Of a DNA stretch of 64,000 nucleotides, positions 3,358 to 57,200 are shown piece after piece. The stretch is from Mobula hypostoma. Lineage: Eukaryota. The first letter of the stretch is position 1. Every line of letters begins with the position of its first letter. Both the position numbers and the translations under genes were made by a program. The notes beneath the pieces are model-generated. The model saw only the letters and a list, made by a program, of their open reading frames with translations, did not search any database and was not told the DNA's origin. The stretch covers positions 108,130,001 to 108,194,000 of the forward strand of contig NC_086097.1 in NCBI RefSeq assembly GCF_963921235.1. Direction: 5' to 3'.

Positions 3358-3362
3358 AATGG

Positions 3363-12952: not shown

Positions 12953-12988
12953 CAGTAGACGTTTCGGGCCGAGACCCTTCGTCAGGAC
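12953..12988 (-). ncRNA. Minimal type-I hammerhead ribozyme motif
   Basis: Minus strand reads gtc-CTGACGA-a-GGG-tctcgg-CCC-GAAA-CGTC-tactg. The core is intact, with one mismatch in stem I. Confidence 0.7.
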
Positions 12989-13580
12989 AAACTGAAAGAA
13001 GAGCTAGTAAGAGATTTGAGAGGGGGAGGGGGAGATCCGAAATGATAGGAGAAGACAGGAGGGGGAGGGATGGAGCCAAGAGCTGGACAGTTTGAAAGCA
13101 GGATCTCCCAGTGGCTACACATTTTAATTCCACGTCCCATTCCCATTCTGATATGCCTATCCACGGCCTCCTCTACGGTAAAGATGAAGCCACACTCAGG
13201 TTGGAGGAACAACACTTTATATTCCGTCCGGGTAACCTCCAACCTGATGGCATGAACATTGACTTTTCAAACTTCTACTAATGCCCCACCTCCCCCTCGT
13301 ACCCCATCCGTTATTTATTTATATACACACATTCTTTCTCTCTCTCTCCTTTTTCTCCCTCTGTCCCTCTCTCTATACCCCTTGCCCATCCTCTGGGTTT
13401 CACCCTCCTCCCCCTTTTCTTTCTCCCTGGGCCTCCTGTCCCATGATCCTCTCATATCCCTTTTGCCAATCACCTGTCCAGCTCTTGGCTCCATCCCTCC
13501 CCCTCCTGTCTTCTCCTATCATTTGGGATCTCCCCCTCCCCCTCCCTCTTTCAAATCTCTTACTAGCTCTTCCTTCAGTT

Positions 13581-13616
13581 AGTCCTGACGAAGGGTCTCG
13601 GCCCGAAATGTCGACT
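13581..13616 (+). ncRNA. Minimal type-I hammerhead ribozyme motif (stem III altered)
   Basis: AGTC-CTGACGA-a-GGG-tctcgg-CCC-GAAA-TGTC-GACT. Confidence 0.65.
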
Positions 13617-13845
13617 GTACCTCTTCCTAGAGATGCTGCCTGGCCTGCTGCATTCACCAGCAACTTTGATGTGTGTTGCTTGAATTTCCAGTATCTGCAA
13701 AATTCCTCGTGTTTACTTTCCAACTACTTACTTTTGCATCACATAGTTGTCCTTCTTGTGAGTTCTTGCTGGCTGTTTGATATCTTTATCTCTTTATGGG
13801 AGCAGACAGGTACCAGAATTTTTGAGAATGATTTTGAGGATTTAT

Positions 13846-16919: not shown

Positions 16920-17870
16920 TAAAGCATAACATTCAAACCAACACTGCATCTGCAGCAAGGTGGATGAATTAATGGCATAAATAATTGAAAATAGGATTTA
17001 TTTCATTTCCTTTAAAGATGTGTGGCTGCAGGGTGACCTTAACTGGGAACTAAATATTCCAGGGTACTGAAAGTTAGGATGCACAAGAGAATGGGAGGAG
17101 GAGGTGGGGATGACATCAGTACTGTCTTTAGAAAGTATCTTGTCTTGGCAGACTGTGGTGTAGAATTAGAAACACAGAAAAATCAGCAGGATGCAGAAAA
17201 TATCGGTGGGAGTTGTTATGGGCCTCTGAATAGTAGTTCTGATGTAAGAGCACAATAAAAATAAGGAAGTTGGAGTTGTGAGTATGCAGTAATCATAGGA
17301 ATACAGTCTAGGCAATTTAGTGCGAATGACGTAGCAAATTAATTCCTGGAGTGTATACAAAATGGATTTCTATATCAGTATGATGAGGAAGGAAAGGCTA
17401 TTTTAGATTTTTTAACTACACAACAAGAAGGGTAAATTTAAAACCCTGCTGTAAAGGAGTCCGCAGGAAAAAGTAATGATACCATATAAAAAGCAGCACA
17501 CACAAAATGTTGGAGGAACTCAGCAGGCCAAGGAGCTTCTATGGAAATGAATAGATAGTTGATGTTTCAGGCTGAGACCCTTCTTCCAGACTGAGAAGGA
17601 AGTGGAAAGATGCTAAAATAAAAAGGTGGATGAGGGGTGGAGGAGAAGGAAGCTAGTCCTGAAGAAGGGTCTCATCCCAAAATGTTAACTATCTATTGAT
17701 TTCCGTAGATGCTGCCTGATTTGCTCAGTTCCTCTACCATTTTGTGCGTGTTGCTTTGGATTTCCAGCATCTGCAGACTTGCTAGTGTTTTTAGCATATG
17801 ATAGAATTTTGTATTAATTTTGTACGTGATGTATTTTAATCTGAGATTATGGTTTTCAATTGAAACAGAA
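16920..17870 (+). mobile_element. Very old CR1 APE-region fragment, interrupted by an inverted PLE derivative (about 17495-17790)
   Basis: Degenerate similarity to 3600-4260. The nested inverted repeat has two decayed hammerhead cores (about 17557-17592 on - and 17655-17692 on +). Confidence 0.6.
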
Positions 17871-20849: not shown

Positions 20850-21590
20850 CTTGTCCATTCGTCCCTCCCCACTGATCTCCCTCCCGGCACTTGTCCTTGC
20901 AACTGGCCTAAGTGCTGCACCTGCTCAGATACCTCCTCACTCACCTCCTTTCGGGTGAGGCAACACTTCACCTGCAAATCTGCTGGAGTCACCTATAGTG
21001 TCTGGTGCTTCCAATGCAGCCTCCCCATTGTAAGTTGGGGGATCACTTCATCATGCACCTCTGCACCATCCACAAGTAGGGTTTCCCAGTGGTCACACAT
21101 TTTAATTCGGATTCCCATTCGGACATTTTGGTCCATGGCCTCCTCTTTTGCCATGATGAGGCCACTTTCAGGGTGGAGGAGCAACACCCTGTCTGGGTAG
21201 CTTCCAACCTAATGGTATGAATATCAATTTCTGCTTCTGGTAAGCAAATTCCACACACCCCACCCCTTCCTCTATTCCCCACTCTGACCCTTTACCTCTT
21301 CTCATTTGTCTATTACTTCCTCCTGGGTCCCCTTCTCCTTCCCTTTCTCCTATAGTCCACTCTCCTCTCCTATCAGATTCCTTCTTCTTCAGCCCTTGAC
21401 CTTTCCCACCCACCTGGATTCACCTATTATCTTCCAGCTAGCCTCTTTCCCCTCTGCCCATCTTTTTATACTAGTGTCTTCCCCTTTCCTTCTCAGTCCT
21501 GCAGAAGGATCTCAGCCCAAAATGTTGCCCATTTATTCATTTCCGTAGATGCTGCCTGACCTGCTGAGTTCTTCTATCATTTTGTTTGAA
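20850..21590 (+). mobile_element. Neptune-type Penelope-like element 3' portion (Cys-rich linker, GIY-YIG remnant and pLTR)
   Basis: 'PGTCPCNWPKCCTC', 'VRQHFTCKSAGVTYSVWCFQCSL', 'PVVTHFN' and 'LQPNGMNINF'. A decayed hammerhead lies at about 21495-21530. Confidence 0.8.
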
Positions 21591-32189: not shown

Positions 32190-34520
32190 TGAATCAGAAT
32201 TGGGTTTTATTATCACTGTCTCGTATGATGTGGAATTTGTTATTTTGCAGCTGTAGTACAGTACAAAGATGTAAAATTTCTTTAAATTAGTGCAAAAAAT
32301 CAATAATGGGGTAGTGTTCATGGATAATTCAAAAACTGTAGAGGGGAAGAAGCTGTTCCAAAATCATTAAGTGTAGGTTATTATGCTCCTGTATCTCTTC
32401 GCTAACGAGGAGAGGGCATGTCCTGGATGATTAGAGTCTTTGACAATGGATGCCATCATCCTGAGGTACAGCATCTTGAAGACATCCTCAGTGGTGGGGA
32501 GAGTTCTGAGATGGAGCTGGCTGAATCCACAGTCTTCTGTGGCCTCTTGCAATCCTATGCATTAGAGTCTCCATATAAGGCTCTGATGCAACCAGTCAGA
32601 ATGCTCGTCATGCTACATCTATACAAGTTTTCAAGTGTTTTTAGCGACATACTAAATCTCCTCAAACTCCTAATGAAGTAGAGCCACTGGCGTGCCTCCT
32701 TGATTACATCTTGGAGATGTTCACACCCAAAAATTTAAAGCTGCTCACCTTTTCCACCAGTCACCCCCTCAAAAAGGACTCCCCGACTTCCCCTTTTGGA
32801 AAGACCACAATCAATTTCTTAGACTTGTTGTTGAGTGTGAGGTGGTTGCTGTGACATCACTCAACCAACTGATCTATCTCACTCCAGGATGCCTCCTCCT
32901 TGTCACCCAAGAACTTACCCACAAGAGTGGCATCCTTTGCAAATTTATAAATGACATTTGAGCTATGTGTAGCCATAAAGACAAGTGGAGAGAATAGAGT
33001 AGTGGGTTAAGCACACATTTTGAGGTACACCTGTGTTGATTGTAAGTGAGAAGGAGATGTTGTCACTGATCTGCACTGACTGTGATCTCCCAATGAAGAA
33101 GTTGAAGATCTAGTTGCAGAGAGAGGTACAGAGGTCTAGGATTTAAAGCTTGACAATTAATTTTGAGAGGTAATTTTGTTAAATACAGAACTGCAATTGA
33201 TAACCAGTTGCCTGACTTGTGCTTTGCCGTTGTCTCGGTGCTCTAAAGCAGAGATAGGTTGCAACTGCTGTAGCCCTGTTTTGGTGGTAGGCAAATTACA
33301 GCAGGTTCAGTCATTGCTCAGGTAGGAGTTAATTCTAGCCATTCCTTGCCCGGGTAGAAGCTAAGTCTAGCCATGGCCAACCTCTCGAAGCACTTCACTA
33401 TGGTCGATATGGGAGTAACATTACAGGTAATGTTGTTGAGGCTTCCCACCCTGCTCTCCTCAGGCACCAGTATATAAACATATAACAATTACAGCACGGA
33501 AACAGGCCATCTCGGCCCTTCTAGTCCGTGCCGAACTTTTACTCTCACCTAGTCCCACCGACCTGCACTCAGCCCATAACCCTCTATTCCTTTCCTGTCC
33601 ATATATCTATCCAATTTAACTTTAAACGGCAACATCGAACCTGCCTGGAAGCTCGTTTCACACAGCTACCACTCTCTGAGTAAAGAAGTTCCCCCTCATG
33701 TTACCCCTAAACTTTTGCCCTTTAACACCCAGCTCATGTCCTCTTGTTTGAATCTCCCCCATTCTCAATGGAAAAAGCCTATCCACGTCAACTCTATCAA
33801 TCCCCCTCATAATTTTAAACACCTCTATCAAGTCCCCCCTCAACCTTCTACGCTCCAAAGAATAAAGACCTAACTTGTTCAACCTTTTTCTGTAACTTAT
33901 AGTATAGTTGATGCCTTTTTGAAATGGGTTGGAACCTCCAACTGCTGCAGTTGAAAATGCCTTTGAACACTCTCTCCTGTTGGTTGGCACATGTTTTCAG
34001 TGGCCTGTTGGGTACACCATCGGGCCCAAATGCCTTGCGAGGGTTGAACTTCTTGAAAGATGCTCTGACACCAGCATCTTAGACAGAGATCACAGAGTTA
34101 CCAGGTGCTGTAGGGACTCACACAAGTGTAGTGCTATTCTCCTTTTCAAAGCGTGCATAAAAGGCACAGAGCTCATCAGGGATTTGAAGCATCTCTGCCA
34201 TTTATGCCGCTAGAATTTGCCTTATGGCATGCAAACCCTTGCACAGCTGTTTAGCATCTGATTGTGGATCTAATTTCACACACAGCTGTCTTTTCATTGT
34301 CACAATCACCTTCAATAGATCATACCAGGACTTCATGCAGAGTTCTGGGTCCTTGCCATTGAAAACCACAGATCTAGCCCTCAGCAGAATGAAAATTTCC
34401 TGTTTCATTCAGAGCTTCTGGTTTGGGAAAACTCAGTACCTTCTCAATGACACACACTCATCCATGCATGTCTTGATGAAGTCAGTACTGTCCTTGACAT
34501 ATTCAGATCCAAGTATGAAT
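32190..34520 (-). mobile_element. Old Rex1/Babar-like LINE (RT region), interrupted by a CR1 3' fragment
   Basis: C-terminal 'ASIVKDSNHPGHALSSL' followed upstream by degenerate RT sequence. Confidence 0.65.
33475..33898 (-). mobile_element. Young CR1 3' fragment
   Basis: 'SYRKRLNKLGLYSLERRRLRGDLIEVFKIM...NFFTQRVVAV' plus the CR1 3' UTR. AGTATA appears on both flanks. Confidence 0.85.
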
Positions 34521-36168
34521 CTCTGAACATAGAAAACCTACAGCACAATACAGGCCCTTTGGCCCACGAAGTTGTGCCGAACATGTCCCTACCTTAGAAA
34601 TTACTAGGGTTACCCATAAACCTCTATTTTTCTAAGCTCCATGTATCTATCCAAAAGTCTCTGAAAAGACCCTATCGTATCCACCTCCACCACTGTTGCC
34701 GGCAGTCCATTCCATGCACTCACCACTCTCTGAGTAAAAGACTTACCGCTGACATCTCCTCTGTACCTACTCCCCAGCACCTTAAACCTGTGCCCTCTTG
34801 TGGCAGCCATTTCAGCCCTGGGAAAAAACCTCTGACTATCCACACGATCAATGCCTCTCATCATCTTATACACCTCTATCAGGTCACCTCTCATCCGCCG
34901 AAGCCCCAAGGAGAAATAAGGCATGCTCCCCAATCCAGGCAACATCTTGTAAATCTCCTCTGCACCCTTTCTATGGTTTCCACATCCTTCCTGTAGTGAG
35001 GTGACCAGAACTGAGCACAGTACTCCAAGTGGGGTCTGACCAGGGTCCTATATAGCTGTAACATTATCTCACGGCTTCTAAATTCAATTCCACAATCGGT
35101 GAAGGCCAATACACCATATGCCTTCTTAACCACAAGGTCAACCTGCACAGCTGCTTTGAGCATCCTATCTCGGACCCCAAGATCCCTCTGATCCTCCACA
35201 CTGCCAAGAGTCTTACCATTAATACTATATTCTGCCATCATATTTGACCTACCAAAATGAACCACCTCACACTTACCTGGGTTGAACTCCATCTGCCAAT
35301 TCTCTGCCCAGTTTTGCATCCTATCAATGTCCCGCTGTAACCTCTGACAGCCCTCCACACTATACACAACACCCCCAACCTTTGTTTATCAGCAAACATT
35401 CTAACCCATCCCTCCACTTCCTCATCCAGGTCATTTATAAAAATCACAAAGAGTAAGGGTCCCAGAGCAGATCCCTGAGGCACACCACTGGTCACCGACC
35501 TCCATGCAGAATATGACCCGTCTACAACCACTCTTTGCCTTCTAGGGGCAAGTCAGTTCTGGATCCACAAAGCAATGTCCCCTTGGATCCCATGCCTCCT
35601 TACTTTCTCAATAATCCTTGCATGGGGTACCTTATCAAATGCCTTGCTGAAATCCATATACACTACATCTACTGATCTTCCTTCATCAATGTGTTTAGTC
35701 ACATCTTCAAAAAATTCAATCATGCTCATAAGGCACGGCCTGCCCTTGACAAAGCCATACTGACTATCCTAATCATATTATACCTCTCCAAATGTTCATA
35801 AATCCTGCCTCTCAGGATCTTCTCCATCAACTTACCAACCACTGAAGTAAGACTCACTTGTCTATAATTTCCTGGGCTATCTCTACTCCCTTTCTTGAAT
35901 AAGGGAACAACATCCAGAACCTCTCCCGTCCCCATTGATGATGCAAAGATCATCGCCAGAGGCTCAGCAATCTCCTCCCTCGCCTCCCACAGTAGCCTGG
36001 GGTACATCTCATCCGGTCCCGGCGACTTATCCAACTTGATGCTTTCCAAAAGCTCTAGCAACTCTTCTTTCTTAATATCTACATGCTCAAGCTTTTCAGT
36101 CCGCTGCAAGACATCACTACAATCACCAAGATCCTTTTCCAGAGTGAATACCCAGTAGAGTTATTGAC

Positions 36169-36485
36169 GCAAACAACAGGAATTTTGCAGATGCTGGAAA
36201 TTCAAGCAACACACATCAATGTTGCTGGTGAATGCAGCAGGCCAGGCAGCATCTCTAGGAAGAGGTACAGTCGATGTTTCAGGCCGAGACCCTTCGTCAG
36301 GACTAACTGAAGGAAGAGTTAGTAAGAGATTTGAAAGTGGGAAGGGGAGGGGGAGATCCAAAATGATAGGAGAAGACGGGGGGGGGGGGAATGGAGGCAA
36401 GAGCTAGACAGGTGATTGGTAAAGGGGATATGAGAGGATCATGGAACAGGAGGTCCGGGGAGAAAGACAAGGTGGGGGGGAACCC
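36169..36485 (-). mobile_element. PLE pLTR insert in CR1
   Basis: TSD AGAGTTATT(G/T)AC at 36157-36168 and 36486-36497. A hammerhead motif lies on the minus strand at 36269-36304 (AGTC-CTGACGA...GAAA-CATC-GACT). Confidence 0.82.
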
Positions 36486-37026
36486 AGAGTTATTTACCCC
36501 TTCCTGTTTTAACCTCCACCCACAGAGACTCCGTAGACAATCCCTCCATGACATCCATCTTTTCTGCAGCCGTGACACTATCTCTGATCTACAGTACCAC
36601 GCCCCCCACCTTTTTTTGCCTCCCTCCCTGTCCTTTCTGAAACATCTAAAACCCAGCACTTGAAGTAACCATTCCTGTCCCTGAGCCATCGAAGTCTCTG
36701 TAATGGCCACCACATCATAGCTCCAAGTACTGATCCACGCTCTAAGCTCATCCACTTTGTTCACAATACTCCTTGCGTTAAAATAGACACATCTCAAACT
36801 GTCGGTCTGAGCGCATCCCTTCTCTATCACTTGCCTATCCTCTCTCACACACTGTCTCCAAGCTTTCTCTGTTTGTGAGCCAACCGCCTCTTCCCCAGTG
36901 TCTTCAGTTTGGTTCCCACCCCCAAACAATTCTAGTTTAAACTCTCCCCAGTAGCCTTCGCAAACCTCCCCGCCAGGATATTGGTCCCCCCGGCATTCAA
37001 GTGCAGCCCATCCTTTTTGTACAGGT

Positions 37027-37634
37027 AACACTCACAACACGCTGGAGGAACTCAGCAAGTTGGGCAGCATCCGTAGAAAGGATGAGTCAACGTTTCGGGC
37101 CGGAACCCTTTGTTAGGACTGTAGAGGGAAGGGGCAGAGACCCTATAAAGAAGGTGGAGGAGGGGTGGGAAAGAGAAGGCTGATAGGTTCCAGGTGAAAA
37201 TACTGTATATTAAAAAAAGTGAGGTAGTGTCCAAAGCTTCAATGTCCATTTAGGAATCAGATGGCAGAGGGGAAGAAGCTGTTCCTGAATTGCTGAGTGT
37301 GTACCTTCAGGCTTCTGTATCTCCTACCTGATACAGAAAATTGTGTTTTCCCCTATTCCTTCACCTTTCCTGCCTATCGCCTCCCTGCTTCCCCTCCCCC
37401 CCCCTTTGTCTTTCCCCTCACTGGTTTTCACCTGGAACCTACCAGCCTTCTCCTTCCCACCCTCCCCCAACTTCTTTATAGGGCCTCTGCCCCTTCCCTC
37501 TACAGTCCTGATGAAGGGTTCTGGCCCGAAACGTCGACTCATCGTTTCCACGGATGCTGCCCGACCTGTTGAGTTCCTCCAGCGTATTGTGAGTGTTGCC
37601 TTGATCCCAGCATCTGCAAATTATTTTGTGTTTA
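37027..37634. mobile_element. Inverted-pLTR PLE derivative in CR1, itself containing a Rex-like fragment (about 37200-37332)
   Basis: TSD CTTTTTGTACAGGT at 37013-37026 and 37635-37648. Inverted arms at about 37027-37200 and 37424-37597. Confidence 0.85.
37504..37539 (+). ncRNA. Minimal type-I hammerhead ribozyme motif, intact
   Basis: AGTC-CTGATGA-a-GGG-ttctgg-CCC-GAAA-CGTC-GACT. Cleavage is predicted after C37535 (GUC triplet). Confidence 0.82.
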
Positions 37635-38734
37635 CTTTTTGTACAGGTCACACCTGCACCAAAAGAGATCCCAATGATCCAGAAATCTGAACCCCTGCGC
37701 CCTGCTCCAATCCCTCAGCCACGCATTTATCCTCCACCTCATTCTATTCCTATACTCACTGTCACTTGGCACAGGCAGTAATCCCGAGATTACTACCTTT
37801 GTGGTCCTGCTTCTCAACTTCCTTCCTAACTCCCTGTAGTCTGCTTTCAGGACCTCCTCCTTTTCCTGCCTATGTCAATATGTACCACGACCTCTGGCTG
37901 TTCTCCCTCCCACTGCAGAATCTCTTGGACGCGATCTGAAACATCCCGGACCCTGGCACCTGGGAGGCAAACTACCATCCGAGGTTCTTTCCTGCGTCCA
38001 CAGAGTTGCCTGTCTGACCCCCTAACTACAGAGTCCCTCATCACTACTGCCTTTCTCTTCCTTTCCCTACCCTTCTGAGCCACAGGGACAGACTCTGTGC
38101 CAGAGGCACGGCCACTGTTGCTTCCCCCAAGTAGGCTGTTTCCCCCCCCAACAGTACTCAAACAGGAGTACTAATTGTCAAGGACTACTCTCTCGTACCT
38201 GACTCTTCCCCTTCCCTCTCCTGACTGTGGCCCACTTGACTGTCTCCCGTGGCCCCGGTGTGACCACCTGCCTATAACTCCTCTCTATCACCTCCTTGCT
38301 CTCCCTGACCAAATGAAGGTCATCGAGCTGCAACTCCAGTTCCCTAACGCAGTCCTTTAGGAGCTGCAGCTCGACACACTGGGTGCAGATATGGCCATCG
38401 GGGAGGTTGGGAGACTCCAGGACTTCCCACATCTGACACCGAGCACTGGCCTCACACACTGGAATATGTTCCAGTCTATCAATTCTAAGTGCTACTGTCA
38501 ATGTTCTTGGTCCTCACAACTGGTGATATGTTCCACAGTCTCTGCCTGTACACTGTGAGTAGAAGTACAGCCAGGTGACCGGACTTGCCAAAGTGAGGTT
38601 GTGGAAATGGTACGGTAAACTTTCTGATTGAGTGTGTTGACTTATCAGGTTCTGTAGGTGACACCATCCAGACTATGCTCTCTTCACACTAATACCATTT
38701 GCCAGGGGTTACAGGAGCCCTGGGTCCCACTTGA

Positions 38735-39598
38735 GCAGATTCAGGAACATCAGGCTCCTGAATCATTATGGATAACTTCACTCACCACTATTCTGAACTA
38801 AATCCACAATGCACAGATACACTTTCAATGACTCTACAACTCACGTTCTTAGTATTAGTTATTTTTTATTTGCACAATATGTCTTTTACACTTTGGTTGT
38901 CAACAAATACACTCAAAAACTTCTATAGTTGTACCATACTGTGGAGAGCATTCTGACAGGCTGCATCACTGTCTACTATGGAGGGGCTACTGCACAGGAC
39001 CAAAAGAAGCTGCAGCAGGTTGTGAATCTAGTCAGCTCCATCTTGGGCACTAGCCTACAAAGTACCCAGGACATCTTTAGGCAGCGGTGTCTCAGAAAGG
39101 CAGCGTCCATTATTAAGGACCTCCAGCACCCAGGGCATGCCCTTTTCTCACTGTTGCCATCAGGTTGGAGGTACAGAAACCTGAAGGCACACACTCAGTG
39201 ATTCAGGAACAGTTTCTTCCCCTCTGACATCCGATTCCTAAATGGACATTGAAGCTTTGGACATGACCTCACTTTTGTTTTTAATATACTGTATTTCTGT
39301 TTGTGCACATTTTTAAATCTATTCAATATACGTAATTGATTTACTTGTTTATTTATTATGTTTTGTTTTATTTATTATTTTTTCTCTCTGCTAGATTATG
39401 TATTGTATTGAACTGCTGCTGCTAAATTTCACATCACATGCCAGGGATAATAAACCTGATTCTGGTTGTTTGTCAGTTGTTGTTTATGTACATTTTTGCG
39501 TAAATTATACTATTTATTTTCCAGTAAATGCTCACAAGAAAATGAATTGCAATAACATATACATATTTTGATAATATGTAAATTCACTTTGACTTTGA
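38735..39598 (+). mobile_element. Two nested Rex1/Babar-like 3' fragments
   Basis: 'VESILTGCITVYYGG...AASIIKDLQHPGHALFSLLPSG'. The inner copy is flanked by GGTTGT. Confidence 0.7.
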
Positions 39599-39599
39599 C

Positions 39600-40300
39600 A
39601 TTGGTGGCACCTTATTAGAGACTTCCTTAAATTTGCCCGGTTGAAAACCCCCTGTGATGATCAAGATGACGTCAGTCTGTGCTGTTGAGTTATTGGCGGT
39701 CTCAGTGCTCAGCAACTCCAGTGTCATCTTGAGGTTCGCCAGGGATGGCATTTACACTGCTACCAGGATGATGGTGGAGAATGCCCACGGCAGATAGTAC
39801 CGATAACACATGATTGCCAGATCGTCCAAGTCAGGGAACAGGACTGAGACAGAACTGCCCCATCTATGCCCCACGATAATTTATTCATGAAGCAAATGCT
39901 GCCACTTATTTCTTTACCTGATGTCATCATCTGGTGAATCCCTCTGTTGTGTCCAGAGTGCTGAGGGATGGATGCCTCTGTGAAGCAGAGGACACAACAG
40001 CAGTCGCACAAATTGCAGGACGAACTTGGCAGTTCAGGCACCATCGACGGAGGGGAATAAGCTGTTGGTTTTTCCAGCTGAGACCCTTCAGGAATGGTCC
40101 TGATGAAGAGTCTGTCTGAAACATTGACTGGTTTATTCCCCTCTATAGATACTGCCGGAATTGTTAAGTTCCTCCTACATTTTGTGCGTGTTGCTCAAGA
40201 TTTTTGGCATCTGCAGTATCTCTTGTGTCTACAGGACTCAACAGTCCCTGATATCTCTACTGCAGCCTTGCTCTGAGGTCAGATTACGAATGTGACTCAC
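39600..40300 (-). mobile_element. Rex1/Babar-like APE-region fragment interrupted by a PLE derivative (about 40075-40230)
   Basis: Minus-strand 'GSICFMNKLSW...AVLSQSCS'. A partly decayed hammerhead lies on + at 40096-40129. Confidence 0.55.
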
Positions 40301-43429: not shown

Positions 43430-46400
43430 GGTGCTTAATGTTCCAGGGTTTTGATGATTTAGCCACCGGAATATTGGGAAACTGGTATGCAGATAGATTA
43501 GAGAAACGTACAAAAACTTCAAGATTACTGTAGTGGGTGATTTCAATATCCCCAATATATTTATGGGGACCTCCTTAGTGCAAGAGGATGAGATCTGGCA
43601 GAATTTGTTTGGTGATTCCAGAAAGGTTTCTTAAATCAACATGTAGGTAGTCTAACAAGAGAGAAGCCCATACAGGACCTGGTGCTGGGTAATAAGCCAG
43701 GTCTGGTGGCTGACCTTTCAAAGGGAGAATGGTTAGGGAACAGTGATCACAATTCCTTACGTTAAGATAGCTATGAATAAGGATAAGTATGGACCTCGCG
43801 GGAGAGTATTGATTTGAAGTAGACCAAATCACAAGAATATTAGGCAGGATCTAGGTAGAGTTAATTGAGTGTACCTGTTTTTAAGCAAGTCCACATTTGA
43901 CATGTAGAGCATGTTTAAAGACCAACTGCACAGAATACAAGACGGGTATGTTCCAGTCAGAAGGAAGAAGAAAGATGGCAAGGTAAGGAAACTTGAATGT
44001 TGAGAGAGGTGGTGAATATACAATGCCTTAAGAATATTCAGATACCACCACAACTATTTTCACATTTTACTGTCTCATTTTCTACATTTAAAATATATTG
44101 AAGTAGGATTTTTTGAGCTAATTTACAAAACATTGTGCATCATGTCAGATCAAAAGAAACATTCCAAAACCAGTCAACAGTTTACTGAAAATTAAAAATC
44201 AAAGTCATGAGGCTGAAAGAGTATTCATCTCCTTTGTAATTTCTATGCCAACTTTCGTCAGGTGCAATACAATATATTAGCTCACCCACTCACCCAATTT
44301 GCTGATATAGAAAATTGGAGGATCAACTAACTTGAATGGATTCATAAGAATACTGTAAATACCCCCTATTTCTCTAAGGTCCAGCAGTATGGTAGATTTT
44401 CAACAGACCAAACCAAAATGCAGACAAAAGAGCATTCAAGTCAAGTCAGGGAAATAATAATAAAGAAACACAAATCTGGGGAAGGGTGCAAGACCATCTC
44501 AAAGTACTGAACATACCTTGGCACTCAGTGCAATCCATCATTTAAAAAAAAAGTGGAAAAGATATGAAATCACAGCAACACTGCCTAAGTCAGGCCATCT
44601 CTCTAAACATAGTCGCTAGAGAAACATGGCACTTTTAAGAGAAGCTACTGTGACACCAGCAGTCATTCTGAGTGAGCTGTAGAAGTCAGTGCCTGCAACT
44701 GGAGATGAAGTTCACAGCTCCACAATTTCTAAGGCCTTGCACAAAAAGTGTATTTATGGAAGAGTGGCAAGGAAGAAGCCCTAGCTTAAAATAAAAAGCA
44801 TATCCTTGCCCATAAAGACTTGACAAAGTGTCACTTAGAAGATACTCTTAAGCTGTGGAAGAAGGGCTGGTGGCTGGATGAGACTAAAGTAGAGGTCTTT
44901 GGGCTCAACAAATCTAATAACAAATTGGGCACATCAGCCAGGTAATACCATCCCTTCTGTAAAGTATGGTGGAGGTAGCATCATGCTATTGTGATGCTTT
45001 TCAGGAGCGGAGACTGGAAATCTAGTCAGGATTGATGGGAAGAAGAATGCTGCTAAATACAGAGAGATCCTGGTTAAAAAACCTGCTAGCCTCCACCAGA
45101 AAGCTTAAACAGTGGAGGAAGTTCATCTTTCGGCAGGACAACAGTCCAAAGCACACTACCAGAGCTTCGTACAAAGAAAATTGATGTCTTTGAGTGGACC
45201 AGTCAGAGTCCTGACCTTAACTCGATTGAACATCTCTGGCAAGACCTCAAGGTTGCTGTCTGCTGCCGCTCCCCAACCATCCTGGCAGAGCTTGAGCAAT
45301 TTTGCAGAGAGGGATGGGCAAATCTTGCTCCATCATGTTGTGCAAAGCTAGTAGAGACTTATCCAAAAAGATGACTGACTGTAATAACCGCAGGGCATGG
45401 TTCAACTCAGCACTGATCAAAAGAGATTTAATACCTTTTGAACTGCTGACGTTTCAGTTTTTGAATTTTTAGCTTTCCATGCTTTACAATTTTCCTGTTT
45501 TTTGTGGGGTTGTACTGTGGGGGGAAAAAGAGAATGTGATTCACAAATAAGAATTCTCAGTTAAATTGATCAAAATCCCTGGTTGTAATACTCATTCATG
45601 TGAAGCAAGGGTTGGGGGCTGATTATTTTTGCAAAGCGCTGTAGTCAGGAAGAAAAGGGTGTATATGCAATGTTAAGGAAATTAAAATCAAACAGAGCCT
45701 TTGAGGATGGTAAAGAATGGAACTAGGAGAGCCAGGAAGGCCATGAAAAATCTTTGGCAAGTATGATTAAAGAGAACCCCAAACACTAAGGAGGGAGCAT
45801 GTAGTTGGAGACAGAGGATGTGGGTACAGTCTGAAATGAGTACCTTGTGTCAGTATTTATCAAGGAAAATATGGAGCAATAAGGATCAATATGGAGCATG
45901 CTAATACTCTAAGGCATTTTGAGGTAAAGAAGGTGTGTTGGGTCTGTGAAAGAACATCACGATGGATTAGTCCCCATGGCTTGATGGAACATGTTCCAGG
46001 TTATTGCAGGAAGCAGGAGATGAGATTGCTGAGACCTCAACCAATATCTTCGCATCCTCTCTAGCCACCGGCAAAGCTCTGGAGGGTCAGCGAGTTCACT
46101 AGGGTTGTTTCAGTAATTAAGAAGGGAATAAGGATAACCCTAGAAACTGTAGTTCGGTGAATCTTGTGTCAGTTGTAGGGATTTTTAGGGATAGGATTTA
46201 TAGCCATTTGGAAAATCATAGCTTAATTAGAAATGGTCAACATGGCGTTGTGTTGGGGAAGTTGTGTTTTCCTAACTTGATTGAGTTTTTCAAGGAAGTG
46301 ATGAAGGTAGAATGTAGATGTTTTCTACATTAATTTTTATTCAGGCTTTTGACAAGGTCTCTCATGGCAGACTCATCCAGAAGATTGGGATGAATTGGAT

Positions 46401-47487: not shown

Positions 47488-47550
47488 CCCGATGATTCCA
47501 GGAACATCACTGAAGATGTGTCCAGAAGCATCAATAGATGTATGTACACA
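47488..47550 (+). repeat. 63-bp perfect direct repeat, copy 1 (copy 2 at 51111-51173)
   Basis: cccgatgattccaggaacatcactgaagatgtgtccagaagcatcaatagatgtatgtacaca is identical at both ends of the element. Confidence 0.97.
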
Positions 47551-47758
47551 GCTTACACCCTGAGTTAATCAGTGACAACCAGGAAAGACTGGGTGACAAC
47601 CGCGAAAAGAGTGGTGACAACTGGAGAGTCAGTGACAGCCCGGAGAGACAGCAACCAGGGTAGAACGGGCTGGCAATCCAATCTGCATCCTCTGAGAGGA
47701 GGACCCCCACAAAAGCTACAAAGAATCTAAGGAAAAGATACCCCCGGGGTGCCCGAGA

Positions 47759-50700
47759 GTGGGGGAGGATGAGCACCCCAGTCGGATGGACACAATGACA
47801 TCAGACCCAGGCAATGAACAAATGACGATGAGGAAGCAGTGTGCATGTGGCAAAATCTGCAAGAACGATCGTGGCTTGAAGATCCACCAAGTGAGGATGA
47901 AGTGTTTGGCGGGAGCAGGAGCAGCACAACGCGCAGGTGTCCAGCCTGGTGAGACAAAGGAGGGGCCAGGCCCGGAGTCACCCCATAGTGCCCGGAACCT
48001 CCAAGTGTTGCAAACTAATCCCTCGAACATGAAGTCTAACAGGAGGTGGATCAAATGGTCTGCAGCTAACATGACTTCACTGTGGAAGCAGTTTGATGAC
48101 GATGTTAACCAAATTCTGGAGGCAACGGCGAAGGGAGGGGTTGATAGGAAGCTGCAAGCCAGGACAACAATTATTGTCAGTATCGCAGCTGAACGGTCCG
48201 GAGAAGAGGAGAAGGAAGGCTCCAAAACATCTCACTCGAAGAACCAAAGAGCATCGAGGATTCACAACATCAGGCAGGAGATGAAAGCGCCAAAGTCCCA
48301 ATACTAGGAGGCAGGAGAAGAGGAGCGCATTGGCTTGGCCCAGCTGATGAGCATACTACGAAAGAAGATCAGGGTCCTCCGCTGGACAGAGTGGCATCGG
48401 AGACGGTGTCGTGAAAGGGCCCGAAAACGTGCTGCCTTTATCACCAACCCCTTCAAGTTCACCAAGGGGTTGCTGGGGGAGAAGCGCAGTGGGAAACTGG
48501 CCTGTTCGCACGAAGACATAGACCAACATCTGAAGAAGATATATAATGATCCTGAAAGAGAGCAGGAGTTGGGAGAGTGCGACATCCTAATAGACCCACC
48601 AGAACTGGATGTGCAGTTCGACGTGTCAGAGCTGCAACTAAAGGAAGTCAGAGAGGTCATCTGCAAAGCAAGGGCAAGCTTGGCTCCACGACCAAGCAAT
48701 ACCTCGTACAAAGTGTACAAGAACTGCCCCAAACCCCTGCTGCATCTGTGGAAGATCCTGAGAGTCTTCTGGAGAAGGGGGAAGATCCCAGAACAGTGGA
48801 GAGTGGCTAAAGGGGTGTGGATCTCGAAGAAGGAAAATGCCACCCAGATAGATCAGTTTCGCATCATCTCCCTGCTGTGTGTCGAGGCGAAGATCTTCTT
48901 CAGTGCAGTTTCTAAACGGCTGTGCACCTACCTAGCAAGGAACACCTATATTGATACATCAGTCCAGAAGGGTGGCATTTCAGGGATGCCGGGTTGTCTG
49001 GAGCATATCGGTGTGGTGACACAGCTCATCAGGGAAGCCAGAGAGAACAAGGGCAACCTGTCAGTGTTGTGGCTCGACCCGGCAAATGCATATGGCTCCA
49101 TTCCGCACAAGCTGGTGCAGCTCACACTGACCAAATATCATGTCCCCAGCAGAATCAGAGAGCTTATCGCAGATTATTACAGCAACTTCAGGATGAGGGT
49201 CTCTTCATCAACCTGGCACAAGGTGGAGATGGGCATCATCACAGGGTGCACTATCTCAGTGACACTGTTCTCCCTAGCCATGAACATGCTCATTAAGTCT
49301 GCTGAACCAGAGTGCAGAGGGCCCAGAATGAATTCCGCTCAACGGCAACCACCTATCAGGGCATTCATGGATGACCTCACAGTCACCACAGAATCAGTCC
49401 CAGGCTGCCGGAGGATTCTGCAAGGGCTTGAAAAGCTGGTGGAGTGGGCCCGGATGCGTTTCAAACCTGCCAAATCAAGATCGATGGTGCTGAGGAAAGG
49501 GAAGGTGGAGAACAAGTTCCAGTTCAGCATCGCAGGCACAGCCATCCCAAACATCACAGAAAAGCCAGTCAAGAGCTTAGGCAAAGTTTTTGGCAGCTTT
49601 TAAGGGACACAACATCCATTCAGGCAACCTTCACCGAGTTGGATGGCTGGCTGAAATCTGTGGACAAGTCTGGCCTACCTGGGAAGTTTAAAGCCTGGGT
49701 CTATCAGCATGGCATTCTTCCCAGAATCCTGTGGCCCCTCCTTGTCTATGCAGTTCCGATCTCGACAGTCGAAACCTTAGAGAGGAGGGTTAGCAACCAC
49801 CTCAGGAGATGGCTGGGGCTGCCAAAGAGCCTGAGCAGCATTGCACTCTATGGACACCACAACAAACTGAAACTGCCCTTCAAATCCTTGGAGGAAGAAT
49901 TCAAGGTAATAAGAGCCAGAGAAGTGCTACAGTATAGGGACTCAAGTGACCCGAAGGTGGCTAGAGCAGGGATCCAAGTAAGTACTGGCAGGAAGTGGAG
50001 GGCAGAGGAAGCTGTTCAGGAGGCAGAGGCGAGGCTGCGTCACAGGAGGCTGGTGGGAGTGATCACACAAGGCCGAGCTGGGCTAGGATCCTTTCCAACT
50101 CCCCAGATGGACAACAGAGGGAAGGAAAGGCGTCGTCTAGTTCAGGGGGAGGTGAGAGCAGTAGTGGAGGAGATGAGAGCCTGCAAGGCGGTGGGAATGA
50201 AGCAACAGGGAGCTTGGACAAGATGGGAGAATGTGGTTGAGCGGAAAGTGAGCTGGGCTGATCCATGGAAAGCCGAACCACACCGCATCCAATTTCTCAT
50301 CCAGGCAGTGTATAATGTGCTTCCAAGCCCATCAAACCTGCACACATGGGGCAAGGCAGAGTCATCTGCGTACCCACTGTGCTCCAAGCGAGGAACCCTG
50401 GAGCACATCCTCAGCGGCTGTGCAAGGGCACTTGGTGAGGGACGGTACAGGTGGAGGCATGATCAGGTCCTGAAGACCGTCGCTGAAGCCGTCAGTGCAG
50501 GAGTTGAGTGGGCGAAGCGGTCCCGACCCTCCAAGCAGACCATTGCCTTTCTCAGAGCTGGGGAGCAACCAATACCTGCCAAATGAACATCTGCAGGCAG
50601 TCTGACCTCTGCAAGGGAATGGCAGCTGTTGGTGGACCTCGAAGGGCAGCTGAAGTTCCCCAACCATATCGCAGCCACCACCCTGCGACTAGACATTGTC

Positions 50701-51054
50701 CTAGTGTCTGAGTTGACTAAGCAAGTGGTGCTGTTGGAGCTGACAGCCCCATGGGAAGATAGCTTGGAAGAGGCCTTTGAAAGGAAGCTCTCCAAGTACG
50801 CAGGACTGGTCAGCAACTGTCAGCAGGCTGGATGGAGAGCGAGGTGTCTCCCAGTGGAGGTTGGTTATAGGGGATTCGTAGCCCGTTCTTTAGTTACAGC
50901 CTTCAGCATTTTGAGCATCGAGGGAGAGAGGAAGAGGAGAGTCATCCGCAGTACCACTGATGCGGCAGAGAGGGCCTCAAGATGGCTGTGGCTCAAAAGA
51001 GGGGAGCCATGGAGTCACAAGTATCTAGCCATCTGGACGCAAGCTGGGGTCTGA
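47759..51054 (+). pseudogene. Single ORF (ZnF-RT-RLE) with two premature stops (48305, 50584) and one frameshift (about 49600)
   Basis: ORF pieces 47759-48307 and 48335-49603 share a frame; 49444-50586 and 50629-51054 share another. Confidence 0.9.
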
Positions 51055-51599
51055 TCATCCCCGGCTGGGTCACCTGGAGGAGGTTGTATGATGTTGAAAG
51101 ACCCGAAACACCCGATGATTCCAGGAACATCACTGAAGATGTGTCCAGAAGCATCAATAGATGTATGTACACAACAGCGAGCCATGTTATAGAGAACACT
51201 GTAGAGCACAGGAGCTAGCCCTTAAGTCAATAATGTCCAAGTCAAAAGTGATGCTGATTGAATCTAATTCTCGCTTATCTGAACATTGTCTGTATGCATC
51301 ATTTCCATGTGTGGTCCATATCAGTTATTTCCCTGCACATTCCAGCTACCTGCCACTTGCCTTGTGGATTTCATTTAAACCTTCCCCTTCTCATCTTAAA
51401 CCTATGCTCTCTAGTATAGACTAACTACCTAGCTTGTCTATACCTGTCGTAATTTTATATTCTTCAATCAGGTCGCTCTTCAATCTCCCATGCTCCAAAG
51501 AGAACAATCTAAATTTGCTCAGCCTCTCCCTGTAACTAATGCTCCCTAATCCAAACAGTCTCATAAACCTCTTCTGCAGCCTCGTCAAAGCTTCTATAT

Positions 51600-53950
51600 C
51601 CAAGAAGGGGAATTTGTAGAATGCCTATGAAATGGCCTTTTAGAGCAGCTTGTGGTTCAGCCCACTAGGGCATCAGCTATTCTGGATTGGGTGTTGTACA
51701 ATGAACTGGAATGGATTAGAGAGTTTAAGGTAAAAGAACCCTTAGGGGAGTGGGATCACAATATAATGGAATTCACCCTGAAATTTGAGAAGGAGAAGCT
51801 AAAGGCAGATGCATCTGTATTACAGTGGAGTAAAGGGAATACAGAGGCATGAGAGGAGTTGGGCAAAGCTGATTGGAAAAGAACACTGGCAGGGATGACG
51901 GCACAGCAGCAATGGCTGGAATTTCTGGAAGCAATTCATAAGGCACAAGGTGCATGTATCCCAAAGAGGAAGAAGTATTCTAAAGGTAGGATGCCACAAC
52001 CATGGCTGACAAGAGAAGTCAAAGCCAACATAAAAGCCAATGAGAGGGCATATAATAGAGCAAATATTAGTGGGAAATTGGAGAATTGGAAAGCTTTAAA
52101 ATCTAACAGAAGGCAACTAAAGAAGTCATAAAGAAAGAAAAGTTGGAATACAAAAGTAAGCTAGCCGATAATATTAACGAGGATACCAAAAGTTTCTCCC
52201 AAAAGAGTAAAATAGAAGCAAGAGTAGATTATGGACCGCTGGAAAATAACACTGGAGAGTTAATAATGGGGAACAAGGAAATGGTAGATGAGCTGGATAA
52301 GCAACTTGCATCAGTATTCATTGTGGAAGACAATCAATGTTGGATGTTCGAGAGTGTCAGGGCTCAGAAGCATGTGAAGTTGCCATTACTAGGGAGAAGG
52401 TTCTTGGGAAACTGAAATTTCCTGAACTGATGGTGTATACCCCAGGGTCTGAAAGAGCTGACTGAAGAACTTGTGGAGGCATTAGTAATGATCTTTCAAG
52501 AATCAATTGATTCTGGCATGGTTTTGGGGAATGGAAAATTGTTAATATCATTCCACTCTTCAAGAAGGGACAGAGGCAGAAGAAAGGAAGCTATAGGCTA
52601 TAGGCTAGTTAGCCTCAGTGATTGGAATGATGTTGAAGTCAATTGTTAAGAATGTGACTTCAGGGTACTTGGAGGTACGTGAAAAGATAGGCCACAGTCA
52701 GCATTGGTTCCTCAAGGGAAAATCTTGCCTGACAAATTTGTTGGAATTCTTTAAAGGAATAACAAGCAGGATAGACAAAAAATAATTGGTCGTGTTGTGT
52801 ACTTGATTTTGACGAAGTGCCACACATGAGGCTGCTTAATAAGTTGAGAGCCCATGGTATTACAGGAAAAAATTCTAGCATGGATAAAACATTGGCTGAT
52901 TGGCAGGAGGCAAAGAGTGAGAAGAAAGGGAATCTTTTCTGATTGGCTGCCAATGTCGAGTGGTGTTCCATAGGGATCTGTGTAGGGACTGCTTTTTATG
53001 TTACATGTCAATGACTTGGATGCTAAGTCATTGTCAATGACTTTGTGGTAAGTTTGCAGATGATATAAAGATATGTGGAGGCGCTCGTAGTGTTGAGCAA
53101 GCAGGAAAGCTACAGAGGGACTTGGACAAATGGACAAAGAAGTGGCTGATGGAATACAGTGTCAGAAAGTGTATGGTCATGCGCTTTGGCAGAGAAATAA
53201 AGGGATAGGCTTTTTTACATGGAGAGAAAATTCAAAAATCTGCAAAGGAAGTTGGGAGTCCTCGTGCAGGATTCCTTGTATGTTCATTTGCAGGCTGAGC
53301 TGGTGGTGAGGAAGGCAAATGCGATGTTAGCATTTATTTCGAGAGACTAGAATGTAAAAGCAAGGATGTAATGTTGGGGCTTTATAAAGCACTGATGAGG
53401 CCTCACTTGGAATATTGTGAGCAGTTTTGGACCCTAAGAACAAATGTGCTGACTTTGGAGGGGGTTTAAAAGGAGGTTCATGAAAATGATTCCAGGATTG
53501 AATATCTTGTCATATGAGGAGTGTTTGATGGCTCTGGGCCTGTATTCATTGGAATTCAGAACAATGAGTGGTCACCTCATTGAATTTATCAAATATTGAA
53601 AGTCCTCAATAGAGAGGATGTTTCCTATGATAGGGGTGTCTGAGACCAGAGGATAATTTTAGAATAGAAGGGTATCCTTTTTGGAACAGACTTGAGAAGG
53701 AATTCCTTTAGCCAGAGAATGGTGAATCTGTGGAATTTGTTGTCACAAGTGTCTGTGGAGAACAAGTCATAGGGTATACTTAAGGGCAGAGGCTGATAGA
53801 TTCTTGATTAGTCAGGGCATGAAGGGCTATGGGGAGAAGGCAGGAGATTGGGGGTTGAGAGGGAAATGGATCAACCATGATGAAATATCGGAGTTGACTC
53901 GATGGGACAAATGGCCTAATTATGCTACTATATCTTATGGCCTTATGGTC
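51600..53950 (+). mobile_element. Old CR1 LINE (5'-truncated ORF2 plus 3' UTR)
   Basis: 'QPTRASAILDWVL...DHNIMEF', 'QPWLTREVK', RT remnants and a tail 'tcttatggccttatggtct'. Confidence 0.85.
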
Positions 53951-54287
53951 TTGCATTCTTCCTGTCATATGGTGATCACAATATTTAAAATGAACCTAAG
54001 TTTTATACAGCTGTAACATGACTTCCCAACTTTTATTCTCAGAACCATAACCAATGAAGGCAAGTGTGCCATATGCCTTCTTTACCAGCATATTTACCAT
54101 TGTCATCACCTTCAGGAAACCATAGACTTTCACCACAAGATCACTCTATACATCAGTGCTCCTGCCATGTTTATTTTCCTCTTGCACTTGACCTCCCAAA
54201 GTGCAAAACCTCACTTGTCTGGATTAAACACCATCTCCATTTCTCTGCCCACATTTCCAACTGGTCTATTTCTTGCTGAATCTTTTG

Positions 54288-57200
54288 ACCATGGAACCAT
54301 AGAACCATATAGAAACTACAGCACAGAAACAGGCCTTTTGGCCCTTCTTGGCTGTGCTGAACCATTTTCTGCCTAGTCCCACTGACCTGCACACGGACAA
54401 TATCCCTCCATACATCTCCCATCCATGTATCTGTCCAATTTATTCTTAAATGTTAAAAAAGAACCCGCATTTACCACCTCGTCTGGCAGCTCATTCCATG
54501 CTCCCACCACTCTCTGTGTGAAGAAGCCCCCCTAATGTTCCCTTTAAACTTTTCCCCCCTCACCCTTAACCCACGTCCTCTGGTTTTTTTCTCCCCTTGC
54601 CTCAGTGGAAAAAGCCCGCTTGCATTCACTCTATCAATACCCATCATAATTTTATATACCTCTATCAAATCTCCCCTCATTCTTCTATGCTTCAGGGAAT
54701 AAAGTCCTAACCTATTCAACCTTTCTCTGTAACTGAGTTTCTCAAATCCCAGCAACATCCTTGTAAACCTTCTCTGCACTCTTTCAACCTTATTTATATC
54801 CTTCCTGTAATTTGGTGACCAAAACTGAACACAATACTCCAGATTCAGCCTCGCCAATGCCTTATACAACCTCATCATAACATTCCAGCTCTTATACTCA
54901 ATACTTTGATTAATAAAGGCCAATGTACCAAAAGCTCTCTTTACGACCCTATCTACCTGTGACGCCACTTTTAGGGAATTTTGTATCTGTATTCCCAGAT
55001 CCCTCTGTTCTACTGCACTCCTCAGTGCCTTACCATTAACCCTGTATGTTCTACCTTGGTTTGCCCTTCCAACATGCAATACCTCACACTTGTCTGTATT
55101 AAACTCCATCTGCTATTTTTCAGCCCATTTTTCCTGCTGGTCTAAGTCCCTCTGCAGGCTCTGAAAACCTTCCTCACTGTCTACTACACCTTCAATCTTT
55201 GTATCATCAGCAAATTTGCTGATCCAATTTACCACATTATCATCCAGATCATTGATATAGATGACAAATAACAATGGACCCAGCACTGATCCCTGTGGTA
55301 CACCACTAGTCACAGGCCTCCACTTGGAGAAACAATTCTCTACTACCACTCTTTGGCTTCTTCCATTGAGCCAATGTCTAATCCAATTTACCACCTCTCT
55401 ATGTATACCTAGCGACCAAATTTTCCTAACTAACCTCCCATGCGGGACCTTGTCAAAGACCTTACTGAAGTCCATGCAGACAATATCCACTGCCTTCCCT
55501 TCATCCACTTTCCTGGTAACCTCCTCGAAAAACTCCAACAGATTGGTCAAACATGACCTACCACGCACAAAGTCATGTTGACTCTCCCTAATAAGTCCCT
55601 GTCTATCCAAATGCTTGTAGATTCTGTCTCTTAGTACTCCCTCCAATAACTTACCTACTACCGATGTTAAACTTACTGGCCTATAATTTCCCAGACTACT
55701 TTTCGATCCTTTTTTAAACAACGGAACAACATGAGCCACTCTCCAGTCCTCCAGCACCTCACCTGTAGACAGCGACATTTTAAATATTTCTGCCAGGGCT
55801 TCTGCAATTTCAACACTATTCTCCTTCAAGGTCCGAGGGAACACCCTGTCAGGTCCCAGGGATTTATCCACTTTAATTTTCCTCAAGACAGCAAGGACCT
55901 CCTCCTTTTCGATCTGTACAGTTTCCATGATCTCACTACTTGTTTCCCTTAATTCCATAGGCTTCATGCCAGTTTCCTTAGTAAATACAGTCGCAAAAAA
56001 CCTATTTAAGATCTCCCCCATTTCCTTTGGATCAGCACATAGCCGACCACTCTGATCTTCAAGAGGACCAATTTTATCCCTTACAATCCTTTTGCTCTTA
56101 ATATACCTGTAAAAGCTCTTTGGATTATCCTTCACTTTGACTGTCAAGGCAACCTCATGTCTTCTTTTAGCCCTCCTGATTTCTTTCTTAAGTATTTTCT
56201 TGCACTTCTTATACTCCTCAAGCACCTTATTTACTCCCTGCTTCTTATACATGTCATACAACTCCCTCTTCTTCTTTATCAGAGTTGCAATATCCCTTGA
56301 GAACCAAGGTTCCTTATTCCTATTCACTTTGCCTTTAATCCTGACAGGAACATACAACTTCTGCATTCTCAAAATTTCTCCTTTGAAGGCTTCCCACCTA
56401 CCGATCACATCGTTGCCAGAGAACAACCTGTCCCAATCCACGCTTTTTAGATCTTTTCTCATTTCTTCAAATCTGGCCTTCTTCCAGTTAAGAACCTCCA
56501 CCCTAGGACCAGATCTATCCTTGTCCATGATCAAGTTGAAACTAATGGTGTTATGATCACTGGAACCAAAGTGCTCCCCTACACAGACTTCTGTCACTTG
56601 TCCTAACTCGTTTCCTAACAGGAGATCCAATATTGCATCCCCTCTAGTTGGTCCCTCTATATATTGATTTAGAAAACTTTCCTGAACACATTTTACAAAC
56701 TCTAAACCATCTAGACCCCTAACAGTATGGGAGACCCAATCAATATATGGAAAATTAAAATCCCCTACCACCACAACTTTATGTTTCCTGCAGTTGCCTG
56801 CTACCTCTCTGCAGATTTGCTCTTCCAATTCTCGTTGCCTATTGGGTGGTCTGTAATACAATCCCACTAATGTGGCCATACCTTTCCTGTTTCTCAGCTC
56901 CACCCATAAGGACTCAGTAGACAAGCCCTCTAATCTGTCCGGCCTGAGCACTGCTGTAATATTTTCCCTAACAAGCAATGCTACACCCCCCACATTTCAT
57001 TCCTCTGCCTCGATCACATCTGAAACATCGGAACCCTGAAATATTAAGCTGCCAGCCCTGCCTCTCCTGTAGCCAAGTTTCACTAATTGCTATAACATCA
57101 TAATTCCACGTGTCAATCCACGCCCTCAACTCATCCGCCTTCCCCGCAATACTCCTAGCATTGAAATATATACACCTCAGAAGATTTTTACCACCACTCA

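Follow-up and report, generated by a model that had tools for sequence, protein, structure and literature searches.

Published accounts of minimal hammerhead ribozymes in pseudo-LTRs of Penelope-like elements from metazoans go back to 2014 (Cervera and De la Pena 2014, PMC4209133), with passages that report thousands per genome in frog and coelacanth, mostly as solo copies, and that also describe opposite-strand hammerhead pairs 100-700 bp apart. The same passages place the end of the intron of Drosophila virilis Penelope at the 5' end of helix I, and among part of the rows of Table S1 and Fig. S3 of that paper there is no cartilaginous fish. Non-LTR retrozymes, as described in parts of Li, Clavereau and Pollet (2026, 10.64898/2026.07.22.740005), carry a type-I hammerhead derived from Penelope pseudo-LTRs and were found in one chondrichthyan, the only one in a survey of 35 genomes; review literature on the subject includes passages of PMC6765202. 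Our own literature search, which had most subscription journals and repeat databases outside its scope and was noisy with hammerhead sharks, returned no report of the motif in sharks or rays, a result that does not establish its absence from print.

Two further sets of descriptions bear on how such elements insert. For the Poseidon element of Anolis carolinensis (Frangieh et al. 2024, PMC11167929), passages of the report describe two internal reverse transcription (RT) start sites 3' of the hammerhead and a one-sided tail, with cutting and extension of both target strands, and the in vitro work identified uncut RNA as the main insertion substrate. The ends of the ray arms described below match these start sites, and the likeness probably extends to the use of both target strands and of uncut RNA. 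The inverted pseudo-LTR units in passages of Arkhipova et al. (2013, PMC3846280) and Craig et al. (2021, PMC8557442) resemble the focal locus in their head-to-head pseudo-LTRs, their tail of 30-40 bp at one end only, their target-site duplications (TSDs) of 8-15 bp, and the unrelated sequence caught between solo pseudo-LTRs. In parts of PMC11167929 and PMC8557442, the role of the ribozyme is treated as an open question.

The motif studied here lies at 37504..37539 on the + strand of a 64-kb window, by which we mean the whole stretch of ray DNA that was analysed. Our main reading, to which we assign a probability of roughly 0.8, is that it is a hammerhead in the pseudo-LTR of a Neptune-type Penelope-like element that is very abundant in the ray genome, and that the focal copy is a passive relic.

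The hammerhead motif and the elements that carry it

Stem I of the motif is formed by AGTC (37504-07) with GACT (37536-39), the core CTGATGA at 37508-14 is followed by one extra A at 37515, and stem II pairs GGG (37516-18) with CCC (37525-27), extendable to 4 bp through a U.G pair (37519/37524) that leaves a loop of 4 nt. GAAA (37528-31) overlaps the palindromic ACGT of 37531-34, there is no loop III, and C37535 closes the GTC triplet, from which the cut is predicted 3' of C37535, between 37535 and 37536. The stem-III remnant is a two-base palindrome, and the ACGT is able to pair between two copies. All of the core positions C3-U4-G5-A6-N7-G8-A9, G12-A13-A14, A15.1, U16.1 and H17 are present, stem I is open-ended, as in type I, and G10.1-C11.1 closes stem II.

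The motif fits CUGANGAH..GAAAN-palindrome-NUH, the metazoan Penelope minimal-hammerhead consensus given in passages of PMC4209133. The features shared with the motifs described there are type I architecture, a stem I of 3-5 bp, CUGANGA with one extra base, G10.1-C11.1, GAAA-C-G-U-C, the lack of a loop III, a pyrimidine-rich 5' flank and a position 3' of the endonuclease ORF. Amongst the examples drawn in these passages, the Neptune motif of Acropora digitifera is the nearest to the ray motif; the stem II of 3-4 bp in the ray, in contrast, is shorter than the ~6 bp of the metazoan consensus.

A minimal-hammerhead descriptor (stem I of 4 bp, stem II of 3 bp) was run on both strands of the window and gave four matches (13581+, 37504+, 40096+ and 36269-). 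In 300 dinucleotide shuffles the mean was 0.01, three of them holding one match and none two. A scan of the window against Rfam returned nothing at gathering score, and around the motif, at E values up to 10, six weak and unrelated matches, none of them a hammerhead. Since Rfam gave no match, the identification of the hammerhead rests on the descriptor and the published consensus and not on a covariance model. The sequence-only reading had listed AGTC/GACT, CUGAUGA, an extra A, GGG/CCC, GAAA, ACGU and GUC, all of which were found base for base at the positions it gave, and its description of a type-I minimal hammerhead is borne out by the sequence, by the descriptor counts relative to the shuffles and by the published consensus. 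Its premise that such hammerheads occur in Penelope pLTRs is in print in PMC4209133, its word "intact" holds for the sequence and goes no further, and the check by motif models that it proposed came out divided, with the descriptor far above the shuffles and Rfam lacking a hammerhead match. Judged by its sequence, the motif is a real minimal hammerhead of the class already known from the ends of Penelope-like elements.

Because the focal insertion holds no coding sequence, its link to a Penelope ORF runs through sister copies. One sister element at 13096..13716 (+) comprises the 3' end of a GIY-YIG ORF (90% to a Mobula hypostoma protein, E 2.9e-25), a 3' UTR, a hammerhead at 13581-13616 and a tail, and is accompanied by an inverted arm at 12894-13090. 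An older one at 20850..21590 (+) carries a Cys linker and a GIY-YIG remnant with frameshifts and stops (tblastn of proteins P0001 and P0002, E 6e-32 and 3e-28), a 3' UTR and a decayed hammerhead at 21495-21530; the broken linker and endonuclease are encoded at 20850-21231. To the endonuclease-linked copies at 21393-21585 and 13581-13719 the focal arm shows 67-74% likeness. The 64-kb window contains no full-length element and no ORF flanked by two direct pseudo-LTRs, so these copies are the sole link between the focal subfamily and the ORF.

The younger remnant (13096-13272) matched five ray proteins, the best from Mobula hypostoma (90%), and a homologue search with the older, frameshifted remnant gave no matches. 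Four of the five matched proteins have a YIDD-type RT motif together with the Cys linker, and most also have a C-terminal GIY-YIG, which Pfam recognised in three of the five at E values of 5e-4 to 2e-3, under the gathering score; the three endonuclease fragments in the window matched no Pfam family. The combination of RT with GIY-YIG (CCHH) at the C-terminus was found for the family via the sister copies and not in the focal insertion itself. These observations indicate that the motif is placed, by sequence comparison, in the pseudo-LTR of an endonuclease-bearing Penelope-like retrotransposon of a batoid genome.

The linker pattern CX4CX2C, a form of the CX2-5CxxC that in the Neptune clade lies between RT and a C-terminal endonuclease, was found in P0001, P0004 and P0005, and also in P0002 and at 20883-20912 of the window, and the distance from CxxC to the next Cys was 23 residues in nine of the ten proteins that matched the pattern among 85 scanned. 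In the published alignment, as given in passages of PMC8557442, this spacing is ~25 residues in Neptune and ~5-9 in Nematis, Poseidon lacks the linker, and Naiad has it but with an N-terminal endonuclease; Neptune is paraphyletic there. With its 23-residue spacing and C-terminal endonuclease, the ray family is like Neptune and unlike Nematis or Poseidon, the latter belonging to a different clade by its lack of a linker. The hammerhead-bearing family is thus most likely Neptune-type, an assignment made by linker spacing and not by an RT tree. Of the proposals of the sequence-only reading on origin, the Penelope pLTR location agrees with the endonuclease remnants that lie upstream of sister copies in the same orientation, the elasmobranch origin agrees with the closest proteins being those of Mobula hypostoma and Hypanus sabinus, and the Neptune-type label stands as far as the CX4CX2C linker with its 23-residue spacing, seen through sister copies, can carry it. 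The C-terminus of the endonuclease also appears fused into the predicted host proteins P0006 (named ATP synthase subunit C3-like), P0012, P0026 and P0038, fusions that probably reflect faulty gene models or the exonisation of repeats.

Counting the focal one, 11 places in the window have at most 13 mismatches to the 36-mer, and a further copy of the motif carries a 2-nt deletion, giving at least 12 copies, a multiplicity that the sequence-only reading had overlooked; 18 pseudo-LTR arms were mapped. Every core base is kept in 7 of the 12 aligned motifs, intact-core copies on the same (+) strand being present, besides the focal one, at 13581, 15702 and 40096, and the ACGT palindrome is changed in 6 of the 12. 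The stem covariation that the sequence-only reading had asked of genomic copies was not seen among the 12 window copies, in which none of seven pairs changed on both sides and the proportion of paired cells (86.9%) was not above shuffles, in a small set of close, decaying copies with little power; the hammerhead covariation in passages of PMC4209133 is between families.

In one DNA run, 28,907 contig records, which are contig pieces and not copies, matched 37330-37670 (341 bases) at 80% likeness or more, showing that the hammerhead-bearing family in the ray genome is very large. Among the variants listed for DNA run X1 were N7 (46%), loop II (47-65%), C17>U (30%), the last base of stem I (19%) and C11.1>U (14%), and by this tally no core C or A can carry more than one listed change; the listing is partial, in that 16 further rows may include core G/T changes, and the contigs drop rare variants and form a biased sample. 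Within the X1 contigs and the variants listed, the common family variants in the hammerhead fall at tolerant positions. Pattern scans for further copies of the motif found none in metagenome contigs and none in viral contigs.

Anatomy of the focal insertion

The motif belongs to the forward arm of a ~610-bp insertion at 37027-37636 in a LINE that we take to be CR1-type, a label of ours for an element whose domains themselves were found by profile. This host remnant spans 36303..38510 (-), its first ORF is interrupted by the insertion, and both of its flanks run colinear to a copy near 57280-57470 that has no interruption; between 37635-38037 and 2865-3276, a stretch coding for an SGNH esterase domain, the likeness is 85%. 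The insertion is bounded by an exact 14-mer, the left TSD at 37013..37026 and the right TSD at 37635..37648; as a chance control, 12 or more shared bases occurred in 1 of 1999 random pairs (2000 draws, one too-short pair being absent).

The forward pseudo-LTR arm (37340..37636, +) has mapped ends at -195 and ~+100 relative to the cut site and is 91% alike to the sister copy at 7021-7288. The inverted arm (37027..37200, -) runs from -110 to +66, is identical to 37425-37597 at 157 of 173 aligned bases (91%), and contains at 37085..37120 (-) a decayed hammerhead whose core G5 and G8 have, by alignment, become A. A tail of ~34 nt at 37602..37636 (+) is found on the forward arm only, the forward arm ending at +101 and the inverted arm at +66. 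The pseudo-LTR with its hammerhead, the inverted 5'-truncated copy, the one-sided tail of the 30-40-bp type and the TSD are, accordingly, all present at this one locus.

Between the arms lies a captured internal piece of 133 bp (37201..37333, -) from the 3' region of a LINE that is presumably L2-like. It is identical at 120 of 132 bases to 39159-39293, ~2 kb downstream, and agrees less well with four other copies in the window (93/112, 80/106, 59/76 and 43/58, or 74-83%). The divergence of the captured piece from its local match equals that of arm from arm, and this equality points to copying of the piece, at the time of insertion, from DNA close by. A local source is not described in the passages of PMC3846280 and PMC8557442 on captured sequence. 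As an alternative, the middle piece was considered as a later, independent LINE insertion, given the GAAAAT on both of its sides; the piece lacks the LINE 3' end, which runs ~170 nt beyond the captured part at 39300-39465, and its divergence equals that of the arms, so this candidate was set aside as the less likely one. At the junction of the captured piece and the forward arm, the hairpin listing contains a 9-bp fold-back (37313..37338, +) that may reflect snap-back synthesis.

An ATG at 37511, in the hammerhead core, opens a frame through the tail (37511-37636), and several sister copies have ACG there. The start of the anole ORF in stem II, as given in passages of PMC11167929, is comparable, but for the ACG of these copies.

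The window holds other transposon remnants. Long remnants labelled CR1-type occupy 2865-6460 (+), 52465-57468 (-) and 33472-38510 (-), with open frames at 55113-56996 (a 627-aa endonuclease-RT) and 4249-5724 (a 491-aa RT). A fragmented non-LTR element at 47696-51054 has an RT (PF00078, E 3e-20), a Cys/His motif at the N-terminus and, at the C-terminus, what to our eye looks like a restriction-like endonuclease; it is flanked by a perfect 63-bp direct repeat (47488-47550 / 51111-51173), unusually long for a TSD. A weak Sleeping Beauty-type transposase HTH at 44331-44507 (PF25787, E 5.6e-6, under the gathering score) marks a Tc1-like DNA transposon remnant.

Prospects for folding and cleavage

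The self-cleavage that the sequence-only reading proposed is not supported for the focal copy. The focal locus has no tandem partner, and the neighbouring arm is inverted, with a decayed core. When the 607-nt insertion was folded, 35 of the 36 motif bases paired with the inverted arm at p of at least 0.98, and stems I and II had p 0.0. A + strand read-through transcript would, in this model, pair the motif with the inverted arm, and the motif would be transcribed after that arm, an order that favours its sequestering; the inverted neighbour probably stops the focal copy from folding and cutting. With the forward arm folded alone, stems I and II were also at p 0.0, and because the hammerhead is disfavoured even without the inverted arm, the folding model is a weak judge of the focal ribozyme. 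It might disfavour any minimal hammerhead that needs a partner and a protein. Folding of this kind also describes an equilibrium, and the motif could become free through splicing, through transcription that begins within the insertion, or through a bound protein.

Dimer folding may itself be insufficient for cleavage, by analogy with other elements. In passages of PMC4209133, the monomer of the Schistosoma minimal hammerhead stayed uncut and cleavage of the dimer was low; the ribozyme of the anole element, according to parts of PMC11167929, cleaved only once the element protein was added; and in Xenopus, as reported in passages of 10.64898/2026.07.22.740005, one of nine tested dimers was active and eight were uncut.

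The host context was surveyed through the reading frames of the window: only 2 of 131 non-repeat frames matched Pfam, both with transposon domains, so that no host exon was detected, and the host LINE runs on the - strand, opposite to the motif. A higher depth downstream of the motif in two putative RNA runs was considered as a sign of cleavage and rejected, being explicable by a mix of subfamilies (the loop-II variant was at ~76-79% there vs 47% in DNA). A raw DNA run gave only three reads off the motif and no reported pile-up of ends.

Insertion ends and competing explanations

Clear TSDs of 14, 15, 11, 10, 9 and 8 bp were found at 6 of the 12 loci examined; at the other six none was clear, and a closer look gave two, with mismatches. 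The 3' ends of the arms fall at +64 to +68 in 7 of 17 cases and at +96 to +104 in nine, with one decayed arm ending at +55, and all five clear inverted pairs have a short end opposite a long one, the decayed pair at 39995-40225 making a sixth case. Among the 18 arms there is no break within 5 nt of the cut site, and the majority continue across it; therefore the insertion template appears to be uncut or religated RNA. At the other end, the starts of five of the 18 arms gather at -29 to -33, by the 5' edge of stem I, a clustering matched in tightness by 1.3% of log-normal simulations in a test chosen post hoc on breakpoints placed partly by eye. This cluster may mark a splice site, a start site or RT drop-off; in all eight upstream-reaching arms examined, stem I begins with an AG preceded by a pyrimidine tract (19-21 of 25 nt).

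Under our main reading, the element protein would have cut both strands of the CR1-type LINE 14 bp apart, and cDNA would have been primed at both ends on pseudo-LTR RNA, ~100 nt and ~66 nt downstream of the ribozyme cut site. Both cDNAs would have passed the cut site, on a template that was uncut or religated, and ended before the coding sequence, the gap being filled with the 133 bp copied from DNA ~2 kb off. For the parent element, the literature on other species suggests that the ribozyme cannot close stem III alone and would pair via ACGU in a tandem transcript, that the element protein probably helps, and that long precursors would be cut to unit length, with insertion not needing the cutting. 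A variant of this scheme, which we regard as unlikely, is that the hammerhead of the ray family is less a cutter than an RNA boundary and a scaffold for priming. Template RNA of one class would then begin at the 5' edge of stem I (-29 to -33), the AG at that edge could, by analogy with Drosophila virilis Penelope, be a splice acceptor, with splicing rewriting stem I and switching the ribozyme, and one protein dimer would prime both strands at staggered fixed sites on uncut RNA, the gap being patched locally.

Could the short copies instead represent a SINE- or retrozyme-like element that is non-autonomous and makes a small RNA of its own, starting at or just before the hammerhead, and not random truncations? 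The start cluster, the median arm length of 132 nt (18 arms) and the retrozymes of the one chondrichthyan surveyed speak for this; yet the focal arms reach -195 and -110, other arms continue into the endonuclease ORF, and the cluster, besides the post hoc choice of its test, could reflect RT drop-off at the pyrimidine tract or cDNA joining at the self-complementary ribozyme stems. Retrozymes also form head-to-tail arrays with a hammerhead per unit, whereas at the focal locus the pair is inverted and one of its cores is dead, and among the seven tandem-repeat rows of the window there was no head-to-tail array of the unit and, at the focal locus, no two such units each with a complete hammerhead. 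We consider this explanation distinctly unlikely.

That the focal copy is an active self-cleaving host RNA, transcribed from the + strand, forming a dimer in trans or with a far-off copy on the same strand, and cutting a host transcript, is very improbable in our judgement. It retains every core base, both stems and the palindrome, the intact-core copies at 13581, 15702 and 40096 offer same-strand partners, family sequence is present in runs guessed to be RNA, and a nested double hammerhead of two copies can be drawn at -14.7 kcal/mol. This fold, however, lies 10 kcal/mol above the co-fold minimum (-25.1) and also above two monomers (-20.2), the motif is sequestered by the inverted arm in the model, the host LINE runs on the opposite strand with no host exon detected, and most Xenopus dimers were uncut; moreover, a decay of ~5% per arm leaves some cores intact by chance, in line with the 7 of 12 that keep theirs. 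We give almost no weight to a chance likeness to a hammerhead within a repeat kept for another reason. Such a view would accommodate the missing Rfam match and the lack of compensatory changes, but it has to contend with the rarity of descriptor matches in shuffles, with hallmarks of PMC4209133, as given in its passages, that the search did not select for (the extra base after A9, G10.1-C11.1, the palindromic 15.2/16.2 and the pyrimidine-rich 5' flank), with a position downstream of the endonuclease ORF, where such motifs always occur, and with the tolerant positions of the common family variants.

On the passive-relic reading, the focal motif adds a member to a published hammerhead class and is probably inert at its locus, and a single motif of such a class matters little. 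What is added is a cartilaginous-fish family of Neptune type, of which none was found in the literature search, abundant enough for mechanism to be read from genomic copies. The readable patterns are the fixed RT start sites, a cut site free of breakpoints, a possible rule that a short arm end pairs with a long one, and the 5' ends at the ribozyme edge, and these family-level patterns are the part worth following. As the sole purified element is of the Poseidon clade, a Neptune-type family would be useful as a second test system.

Several other insertions in the window were noted. In a sister insertion of the focal subfamily at 7014-7347, the TSD measures 15 bp, the inverted arm is long (7021-7288) and has U in place of core C3, and the forward tail is 24 nt. 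This TSD and the focal one both hold TTGTACA(A)GG, and both TSD ends look like the element sequence around its +66 start, which may hint at priming guided by microhomology or at a preferred target. Small head-to-head pseudo-LTR pairs lie at 15609-15800, 17490-17790 and 39995-40225, with junctions at or near the 5' edge of the hammerhead. A local duplication ~3 kb apart (12702-12893 and 13713-13782 vs 15914-16161), at 94% to the left of the 12894-13714 insertion and 81% to its right, abuts an inverted arm at 12571-12703, where a TSD was looked for and not found; this duplication is possibly a second case of captured local DNA.
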